The notes under the pieces are model-generated. The model had not been told where the DNA came from. It was given only the letters and a program-made list of their open reading frames with translations, and searched no databases. This document shows positions 14,431-15,761 of a stretch of 30,104 nucleotides of DNA, one piece after another; the stretch's first letter is position 1, and the number at the start of each line of letters is the position of its first letter. Where the stretch lies: contig JAKSVJ010000001.1 of assembly GCA_024408015.1 (NCBI GenBank), positions 1 through 30,104 on the forward strand, given 5' to 3'. This stretch comes from Clostridia bacterium. GTDB taxonomy: Bacteria; Bacillota; Clostridia; Oscillospirales; CAG-272. Position numbers and translations under genes: made by a program.

Positions 14431-14477
14431 AAATAAAAGCAGCTATAAGCCTATAGAACTCATAGCTGCTTTTATTT
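14431..14477. terminator. Bidirectional intrinsic terminator shared by GH43 (+) and the 65-aa ORF (-)
   Basis: Perfect 16-bp inverted repeat AAATAAAAGCAGCTAT (14431-14446) / ATAGCTGCTTTTATTT (14462-14477), giving T-runs on both strands. Confidence 0.85.
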
Positions 14478-14507: not shown

Positions 14508-14705
14508 TTAAACTCTTGCTGTTGCTTTAGATTGTTTTAAAGCTCTATAAGCAAGAGGAGAGTATAAATCACACTTTTGATCGAGTTTGACAGCACGATG
14601 TCTTCTATCGAGCATCATTTCATTGATGTTGCTTCCGTAGATATCATCATTCTTTAATTCATATGTGCGTACGATGCATCCTGCAATATATTCGATCTGT
14701 TCCAT
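14508..14705 (-). CDS. 65-aa orphan small protein divergent from the XRE/S24 repressor
   Basis: ATG preceded by a GAGAGGT RBS, a consensus promoter about 35 nt upstream and a terminator about 30 nt downstream. No family recognised. Confidence 0.75.
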   Translation of the reverse strand: MEQIEYIAGCIVRTYELKNDDIYGSNINEMMLDRRHRAVKLDQKCDLYSPLAYRALKQSKATARV

Positions 14706-14740
14706 GTTATTTTACCTCTCGCGGTTGATTTTGTGAGTGC

Positions 14741-14769
14741 ATTATAACACTGCAAGGTAAAACTGTCAA
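14741..14769 (-). promoter_or_regulatory. Perfect-consensus SigA promoter with extended -10 for the 65-aa ORF
   Basis: On the minus strand, TTGACA (14769-14764), a 17-nt spacer ending in TGT, then TATAAT (14746-14741). Confidence 0.88.
14745..14760. promoter_or_regulatory. Putative operator O-L inside the -35/-10 spacer of the leftward promoter
   Basis: TAACACTGCAAGGTAA matches the palindrome TTACCTTGCAAGGTAA at 13/16; its last 10 nt are identical to O-R. Confidence 0.65.
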
Positions 14770-14773
14770 TAGC

Positions 14774-14809
14774 ATTTTATAAAAAAATATAAAATTTTAT
14801 AAAAAAATA
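14774..14809. repeat. A-tract direct repeat, 2 x 16 nt, 20-nt period
   Basis: ATTTTATAAAAAAATA at 14774-14789 and again at 14794-14809. Confidence 0.8.
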
Positions 14810-14818
14810 GAAAAACAC

Positions 14819-14847
14819 TTTACAATAGTATAAACTTGTGGTAATAT
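14819..14847 (+). promoter_or_regulatory. SigA-type promoter with extended -10 for the repressor gene
   Basis: TTTACA (14819-14824), a 17-nt spacer ending in TGG, then TAATAT (14842-14847). Confidence 0.65.
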
Positions 14848-14863
14848 TTACCATGCAAGGTAA
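14848..14863. promoter_or_regulatory. Putative operator O-R over the predicted +1 of the repressor promoter
   Basis: TTACCATGCAAGGTAA is 15/16 to a perfect palindrome. Confidence 0.7.
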
Positions 14864-14884: not shown

Positions 14885-15607
14885 ATGACATGGTTAGAAA
14901 ACATCAAAAGAATTAAAAAAATGAAGGGTTGGACAAACGATGACCTTTGTACAAAGTCAGAATTATCTCTTGGTACAATAAACAAGTTGTTTGCTGGACA
15001 AAGTGAAGATCCAAAACTCTCAACATTGATGCAGTTAGCAAAAGCTTTTGATATGCCTTTAGATGAGATGCTCGGACTAAGAGAGAATGATCCTTCTAAC
15101 ATGATGGATCCTGATCTTCTTAAAAAATATGTCGAACTCGATAAGGCAGGTAGAGAAACTGTCGATTATATAATAAATAAGGAATATAAAAGAATCTTAG
15201 ATGAAAAAAGAGCTCAGCCATATTCACTTGATGCAAGAAATATAAAGAAAATTAAGTTGTTTGAAATTTCTGCATCTGCGGGTACTGGCATATACTTGTC
15301 AGATTGTAAGAGCGAAGATATACCTGTGTTCCTTAATCCGATTACCGAGGCTGCTGATTTCGCTGTTAGAGTTAGAGGCGATAGTATGATGCCAAAATAC
15401 AAAGACGGTGATATTATTCTTGCAGAACAAGCTGACCAAGTTGATGAAGGTGAACTTGGACTATTCTCACTAAATGGAGAAGGCTACTTCAAGAAGTTTG
15501 GTGGAGATTGTCTTATCTCTTTAAATCCTCAATACGAAGATATAGACATAACCCCTTATGATGATTTGCACTGCTTTGGTAGAGTAGTTGGTAGATTGAA
15601 AAAATGA
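14885..15607 (+). CDS. XRE/cI-type HTH plus S24 peptidase self-cleaving repressor (HdiR/cI-like, not winged-helix LexA)
   Basis: N-terminal HTH (TNDDLCTKSELSLGTINKL...DPKLSTLMQLAKAF). Ala132-Gly133 in ASAGTG, Ser167 in VRGDSM, Lys204 in YFKK. The A-to-S (35) and S-to-K (37) spacings equal those of E. coli LexA (A84/S119/K156). Confidence 0.92.
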   Translation: MTWLENIKRIKKMKGWTNDDLCTKSELSLGTINKLFAGQSEDPKLSTLMQLAKAFDMPLDEMLGLRENDPSNMMDPDLLKKYVELDKAGRETVDYIINKEYKRILDEKRAQPYSLDARNIKKIKLFEISASAGTGIYLSDCKSEDIPVFLNPITEAADFAVRVRGDSMMPKYKDGDIILAEQADQVDEGELGLFSLNGEGYFKKFGGDCLISLNPQYEDIDITPYDDLHCFGRVVGRLKK

Positions 15608-15612
15608 TTTTT

Positions 15613-15641
15613 AGAGTGGTGTGAGAGCACCACTCTTTTTT
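15613..15641 (+). terminator. Intrinsic terminator after the repressor
   Basis: AGAGTGGTG-TGAGAG-CACCACTCT followed by a T-run. Confidence 0.85.
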
Positions 15642-15734: not shown

Positions 15735-15761
15735 TTAGCACTTGGGAACACTGAGTGCTAA
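15735..15761. promoter_or_regulatory. CIRCE element (HrcA operator)
   Basis: TTAGCACTT-N9-GAGTGCTAA, one mismatch to the consensus TTAGCACTC-N9-GAGTGCTAA, upstream of groES. Confidence 0.95.

Follow-up and report, generated by a model that had tools for sequence, protein, structure and literature searches.

A soluble 65-residue orphan protein in the predicted effector position of an XRE–S24 repressor switch in Clostridia

The window analysed here (30,104 nt of Clostridia bacterium, GTDB order Oscillospirales, CAG-272; GenBank assembly GCA_024408015.1, contig JAKSVJ010000001.1, positions 1–30,104) contains a divergent gene pair in which a 65-residue soluble protein is encoded opposite a repressor that combines an HTH of the XRE type with a Peptidase_S24 domain. 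The small gene is real, protein-coding and under purifying selection and, as judged from our searches, the protein belongs to an undescribed family without detectable relatives. In other genera of the same bacterial family, an orthologous repressor faces an unrelated membrane protein. We tentatively propose that the small protein is a damage- or stress-induced cytosolic inhibitor and the only output of a self-contained CI/LexA-like switch on the chromosome, a reading that we place a little short of evenly balanced.

Many bacteria arrest the cell cycle after DNA damage through small effectors whose genes face those of LexA-like repressors. These effectors lack homology from one lineage to the next, and most of them await discovery. 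The present locus offers a clean comparison, with the same repressor, promoter and operators in neighbouring genera and an effector that is a membrane protein there and soluble here, and could show what such a switch must achieve and how new small proteins get recruited. The organisms are uncultured rumen bacteria, which keeps the practical impact modest for as long as the protein has not been produced in a model host.

The small gene, its transcription unit and its family

The features of the locus are as follows, with positions counted in the window.

14431–14477, both strands: bidirectional intrinsic terminator of the small gene and the convergent GH43 gene (hairpin and T-runs)
14508–14705, minus strand, stop codon included: gene for the 65-residue soluble orphan protein (ORF, homologues, codon-position and dN/dS signature)
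14713–14725: operator-like site A, TACC-N6-GGT, at about +9 to +21 of the small-gene transcript (intergenic alignment)
14714–14720, minus strand: small-gene RBS, GAGAGGT, 8 nt from the ATG and, in this genome, inside site A (sequence, intergenic alignment)
14741–14769, minus strand: small-gene promoter, TTGACA, 17-nt spacer, TGnTATAAT, 12 of 12 consensus positions (–35 and –10 conserved across genera)
14747–14760: operator-like site B, in the spacer of the small-gene promoter (intergenic alignment)
14819–14847, plus strand: repressor promoter, TTTACA, 17-nt spacer, TAATAT, with TG before the –10 (sequence, intergenic alignment)
14848–14863: operator-like site C, the palindrome TTACC-N6-GGTAA, perfect over 16 bp and abutting the –10 of the repressor promoter
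14885–15607, plus strand: gene for the XRE-HTH and Peptidase_S24 repressor, 240 residues (Pfam, PHROG, alignment)
15613–15636, plus strand: repressor-gene terminator, separating the switch from groES/groEL (sequence)
15735–15761: CIRCE element upstream of groES, one mismatch to consensus

An earlier, sequence-only reading had described a complete transcription unit here, with consensus promoter, GAGAGGT RBS, ORF and terminator, and each of these parts could be located at the gene on the minus strand. The promoter is the best-scoring site of the region, with a TG preceding the –10. The transcript is short (about 300 nt) and has its own terminator, a 19–20-bp hairpin with a T-run on each side that begins 30 nt 3′ of the stop codon. 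The gap to the facing repressor gene is 179 bp. Between the divergent promoters lie two tandem 20-bp AT-rich repeats (ATAGCATTTTATAAAAAAAT-like; 14769–14808), which could be UP elements or bending sites; their sequence is not conserved in the other species.

The flanking genes are all housekeeping genes, with tig, clpP, clpX and GH43 on one side of the switch and groES and groEL on the other. The CIRCE element indicates that the chaperone operon is under HrcA-type control, independent of the switch. A functional link of the repressor to groESL was considered and rejected: the repressor gene has its own terminator and groES its own CIRCE element, and the adjacency is positional only.

Homologues of the small protein, 60–68 codons in length, are present in all three other species of the genus in the genome collection, with identities of 47–52% by tblastn and 47–63% overall. 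Their reading frame is kept open, and both alternative frames contain stops. Over the 52 ungapped codons of the four-species alignment, 24 invariant columns fall at the first codon position, 24 at the second and 5 at the third. Pairs of species share 22–33 identical residues, 11–15 of which are encoded by different codons, and dN/dS is 0.16–0.29 where dS is computable and elsewhere saturated. The nucleotide identity of the gene between this genome and the others is just 49–58%, and an Rfam search returned only sub-threshold noise. The codon-position pattern, the synonymous codon differences and the dN/dS values place the selection on the protein and not on the RNA, so that the coding status assumed in the sequence-only reading is borne out by the conserved frame (3 of 3 other species) as well as by dN/dS.

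The family is very small and narrowly distributed. An exhaustive HMMER pass over 1.84 billion representatives gave four real relatives, only from Clostridia MAGs; a fifth match (P0004, 1750 residues) was rejected as spurious. A profile search of 5.8 billion clusters recovered 11 clusters of 60–77 residues, named only as hypothetical proteins of Clostridia MAGs, and genome records place family members in goat reticulum and reindeer. Within a 251-genome sample of the bacterial family, the protein is found in four of four genomes of its genus and in none of the 247 genomes of 96 other genera, and a metagenome scan added one locus only, identical to that of another species of the genus (G001). Phage origin was rejected: tblastn against 50,697 phage records and a search of IMG/VR gave no relatives. 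In all four genomes of the genus the small gene is divergent from an orthologous XRE–S24 repressor gene and lies near groESL, which extends the pairing seen in the window to the whole genus as sampled.

Two of the other species differ in detail. In G001, the small gene is found at the ends of two contigs, C8 and C19 (end of L009, start of L010), with a difference of one residue (Gly24/Asp24), and the assembly break inside the locus is probably due to strain heterogeneity. In G002, the small gene is followed on its own strand, after 112 bp, by a 363-residue ORF (L011:212–1303, minus strand) for which NCBIfam gave no match; the arrangement is absent from the other three species.

Residues E5, I7, C10, V12, Y23, S25, I27, N28, E29, L32 and R34 of the small protein are invariant and R37 is mostly conserved. 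The conserved loop motif is KNDDIYGSxINE, and the last 15 or so residues vary. Two AlphaFold (AF2) runs, with 6 and 12 sequences, agree on a predicted β-hairpin (residues 3–14), a loop, a basic helix (27–48) and a second helix (50–63), with low tertiary confidence (pLDDT 71 and 65, pTM 0.43 and 0.31). Small proteins that oligomerise, or that take up their fold on a partner, often give values in this range, and the present protein may be of this kind. No transmembrane (TM) segment was detected by hydropathy, the maximal Kyte–Doolittle mean over 19 residues being 0.04 here and at most 0.68 across 12 family members, and no membrane-type amphipathic helix was found. Pfam searches with the single sequence and with all 12 members gave no match at E values up to 5, including none to LysM, HTH or RHH families; PHROGs, NCBIfam, PADLOC and a PDB sequence profile likewise gave no match, and the ESM Atlas no usable one. 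Fold searches with the low-confidence model found no match in Foldseek (PDB and BFVD, E > 1) or VIA (Z ≤ 4.1). The lack of a TM segment, LysM domain and recognisable HTH noted from the sequence is thus upheld, and the HTH, RHH, Pfam, PHROG and fold searches give no sign of a Cro-type HTH, the last of these from a weak model.

The suggestion that the C-terminus might be a ClpX degron finds weak support. Among 11 distinct sequences, the C-terminal residue is Ala in seven, Val in two and Ile in one, usually after Arg or Lys, and the tails (-RRIA, -GRIA and -SKIA, for example) usually end in basic residues followed by I-A, R-V, S-A or T-A. The tail is otherwise variable, and endings of this kind would fit a C-terminal degron.

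The repressor, its candidate operators and its partner in sister genera

The repressor has the layout of LexA-like repressors of the CI/HdiR type, an XRE HTH at the N-terminus (PF01381, 9e-8) and a Peptidase_S24 domain at the C-terminus (PF00717, 1e-19), and also matches phrog_4 (4e-36). In eight orthologues from four genera, the S131-A132-G133 cleavage site, G165-x-S167-M168 and K203 are invariant. The protein thus has the Ala-Gly site and the catalytic Ser and Lys that LexA/CI-type self-cleavage requires and, judged by its sequence, is cleavage-competent.

The sequence-only reading had taken this protein for an SOS repressor, and here our analysis departs from it. The repressor scores 24 bits against the canonical LexA model TIGR00498, for which the cut-off is 111, and canonical LexA proteins (158–204 bits) are encoded elsewhere in all four genomes of the genus. 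By these matches it is not LexA or the SOS master regulator; because a canonical LexA exists elsewhere, it is best described as a second, CI-like regulator. Control of the switch by canonical LexA was also considered and rejected, as the intergenic region contains no Cheo box. A recA gene is present in the near-complete genomes of the genus (G001–G003) and was not found in the present assembly, which is 64% complete.

Some observations on the canonical lexA genes are recorded here. The only LexA-model match of the present assembly (G000) is on contig C275 (L015:1438–2100, minus strand; 158 bits) and is followed by ORFs of 63 and 319 residues. Its score lies below the 196–204 bits of LexA in the other three species, and it may be a second, element-borne paralogue, with the main lexA gene unassembled; G001 also has a second LexA, at 115 bits. 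The canonical lexA of G001 (L047:1489–2094) is divergent from a 293-residue ORF and not from a small membrane protein, and no YneA-like gene is visible beside lexA in the genus.

Three operator-like sites lie between the divergent genes. In site A, TTACC and GGT are invariant in eight species of three genera. Site B is degenerate in this genome, with TGCAAGGTAA in common with site C; the other species have TACC-N6-GGTA there. Site C is a perfect palindrome in this genome only, and its 16-bp sequence occurs as a single copy in the 1.45-Mb assembly. Looser versions of the operator fall mostly within long open frames in this assembly, and in the other three genomes of the genus they are no more frequent than a reversed-pattern control. 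The searches covered four genomes of the genus, MAGs of 64–94% completeness in which other regulon members could be missed; within these limits, the small gene and the repressor gene itself appear to be the only visible targets. The view of the small protein as sole apparent effector, taken originally from this locus, is therefore consistent with the lack of further operator copies above background in all four genomes. The candidate operators overlap the strong promoter and the leader of the small gene, and the repressor is predicted to regulate itself negatively as well.

The same regulatory region is found with a different partner in sister genera. Repressor orthologues in other genera are 38–47% identical over their full length and have the same N-terminal signature, and they are divergent from a protein of 89–121 residues that has two TM segments and bears the motif GGME[CS]G. 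This 2-TM family occurs in 52 of 250 genomes and 26 of 97 genera of the family sampled. It has no Pfam match and is named hypothetical in every source. The repressor gene is adjacent and divergent at each of the ten best 2-TM loci, and four more diverged loci also have a small 2-TM partner, giving at least 14 sister-genus loci altogether (L056, L062 and L064 in genus g17, L055 in g20, and L057–L061, L063 and L029–L032). Six-frame searches did not find the 2-TM family in the genus of the small protein, nor the small soluble family in other genera. The 2-TM module has the same TACC-N6-GGT operator layout, and the intergenic regions of three genera align in register through TTACC-N6-GGT, TGTG, the –10, the spacer site, the –35 and the repressor promoter.

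The two partners themselves show no kinship. A comparison of the soluble protein with the 2-TM protein by hhalign gave probabilities of 0.1–0.2%, with no relationship in any frame, and hhalign found no similarity of the small protein to any part of the repressor. Derivation from either the membrane effector or the repressor was rejected on this basis. The alignments suggest that the regulatory chassis is orthologous across genera and that its cargo has been exchanged, a 2-TM membrane protein giving way to a soluble orphan in one genus; the two would be equivalent by position only. Because the sister-genus membrane protein cannot be a Cro, the left arm of the switch is probably an effector slot.

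Proposed mechanism and rival explanations

A working model for the switch can be drawn from these features. In unstressed cells, the XRE–S24 repressor would occupy TACC-N6-GGT(A) sites in the promoter spacer, just 3′ of the start of the near-perfect sigma-A promoter and at its own promoter, and thereby keep the small gene off. A trigger, most likely RecA filaments formed after DNA damage, would induce self-cleavage at Ala132–Gly133 and remove the repressor; by analogy with the RecA-independent repressor IrvR, discussed below, cleavage without RecA is also possible. Loss of the repressor would release the strong promoter and produce a burst of the small protein. This would bind a cellular machine and block it for a time, most probably that of cell division or growth, and so take the role that the 2-TM membrane protein may have at the sister-genus switch. 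The system could then be reset as the repressor is re-made from its own derepressed promoter, possibly with proteolysis of the small protein through its basic Ala- or Val-ended C-terminus.

The division or growth machinery is the likeliest class of target, because a gene divergent from that of an S24 repressor typically encodes a small division inhibitor, non-homologous from case to case, and because DdrR of Acinetobacter offers a cytosolic example. A broader historical claim is possible, though in our judgement doubtful: that in one rumen genus of this Clostridia family the ancestral membrane effector of a conserved damage-inducible switch gave way to a cytosolic protein of 65 residues that is unrelated to it and may have arisen de novo. 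Bacillota would then possess a previously undescribed family of soluble proteins that inhibit growth or act at a checkpoint. If true, the locus would show in nature how effectors can turn over while the regulatory chassis stays fixed, with the soluble replacement of a membrane effector as its new element.

The small protein could instead feed back on the switch, as an anti-repressor, a co-repressor or a non-HTH Cro analogue acting on the operators, and determine how long induction lasts or whether it is bistable, with no action on another cell process. Its gene faces that of a CI-like repressor, where a Cro would classically be encoded, and its basic helix carries the invariant R34 and the mostly conserved R37. 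The closest precedent, DdrR, binds its repressor and co-represses (PMC13689564), and IrvA, which has the same position in Streptococcus mutans, is a Cro homologue (PMC7101444). On the other hand, the protein has no HTH or RHH family match, no Cro-like fold match, no PHROG match and no similarity to any part of the repressor; the same slot in sister genera holds a membrane protein that is unable to bind DNA; and a switch with no other visible target would be left without an output. We consider a feedback role unlikely for these reasons. It is also conceivable that the product is a toxic or suicide effector, either a growth-arresting toxin like those induced by SOS or a defence module triggered by phage-induced DNA damage, rather than a reversible checkpoint. 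Very tight control would suit such a product (a consensus promoter and two overlapping operator-like sites, one of them covering the RBS region), as would a gene that is lineage-restricted and fast-evolving and a repressor whose HTH weakly resembles CapH-type defence regulators (E 1e-4). We nevertheless judge this quite unlikely: PADLOC gives no match for the small protein, there are no relatives in phages or viral contigs, and the housekeeping neighbours (clpX, GH43 and groESL) and a position that is stable across the genus imply that the locus is not a defence island or mobile element.

Least probable by far is that the transcript and not the peptide is active, as a regulatory RNA in the manner of irvA mRNA, which stabilises gbpC mRNA. 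An mRNA that acts in trans from exactly such a locus does have a precedent (PMC7101444), and the present transcript is short and has its own terminator. The scarcity of invariant third positions (5 of 52, against 24 at each of the first and second), the low nucleotide identity and the Rfam result make this highly improbable. A modest share of the probability falls to roles other than these. The reading that we carry forward is that of a cytosolic inhibitor under control of the repressor.

Comparison with known systems

The system that most resembles this one is DdrR/UmuDAb of Acinetobacter. DdrR is a cytosolic, genus-restricted, domain-less protein of 76–78 residues, encoded divergently from UmuDAb, the self-cleaving S24 repressor that controls it; it is a division inhibitor whose derepression leads to filamentous cells and arrested growth, and it also acts as a co-repressor by binding its repressor (PMC13689564). 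By its description there, it resembles the present family (60–77 residues) in small size, predicted cytosolic location, lack of known domains, restriction to one genus and divergence from an S24 repressor gene. The sequence-only reading had regarded a soluble effector opposite such a repressor as a new kind, a claim that gives way to this precedent. The two systems differ in that Acinetobacter lacks LexA, whereas this genus also has a canonical LexA; in that the umuDC operons are further targets of UmuDAb, while the present repressor has no other visible one; and in phylum, the present hosts being Bacillota of the class Clostridia. Homology of the small protein to DdrR is unlikely, because the search of 1.84 billion representatives gave only family members from Clostridia MAGs. 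The locus would add a Gram-positive counterpart to the recently described DdrR.

Among the membrane-anchored effectors, yneA (Bacillus and Listeria), sosA (Staphylococcus), chiZ, divS and sidA resemble the small gene in being small, fast-evolving, lineage-specific and divergent from an S24 repressor gene under its operator, binding to which is presumed in our case. They are proteolytically controlled, as the small protein may be. Unlike these membrane-anchored proteins, the small protein has no TM segment, and the LysM domain of YneA and ChiZ has no counterpart in it. The regulator also differs from that of the lexA–yneA and lexA–sosA pairs, being a CI-like repressor with an XRE HTH in place of LexA.

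IrvR/IrvA of S. mutans combines a core-genome, phage-derived LexA-like repressor, which cleaves without RecA, with one adjacent small gene as its primary target (PMC7101444). The plan of a LexA-like repressor with one adjacent small gene is the same, but IrvA is a Cro homologue with its mRNA as effector, whereas the small protein has no Cro similarity and selection acts on the protein. In Francisella, an S24 repressor co-opted from phage, FddR, controls its own gene and divergent genes as a self-contained unit (PMC13148647). Its operator (GTG-N11-CAC) and cargo genes differ from those described here, and the Francisella lineage has no functional canonical SOS response. The XRE–S24/2-TM module of the sister genera shares with the present locus an orthologous repressor, the promoter and operator region and the layout of sites; it differs in its effector, an unrelated membrane protein of 89–121 residues with the GGME[CS]G motif.

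Systems in which a small effector is encoded divergently from an S24 repressor are thus known, as in the YneA, SosA, ChiZ, SidA, DdrR, IrvA and FddR units. What is unusual is that the effector of a Bacillota lineage is soluble when that of its neighbouring genera is a membrane protein, and that this switch coexists with a canonical LexA.
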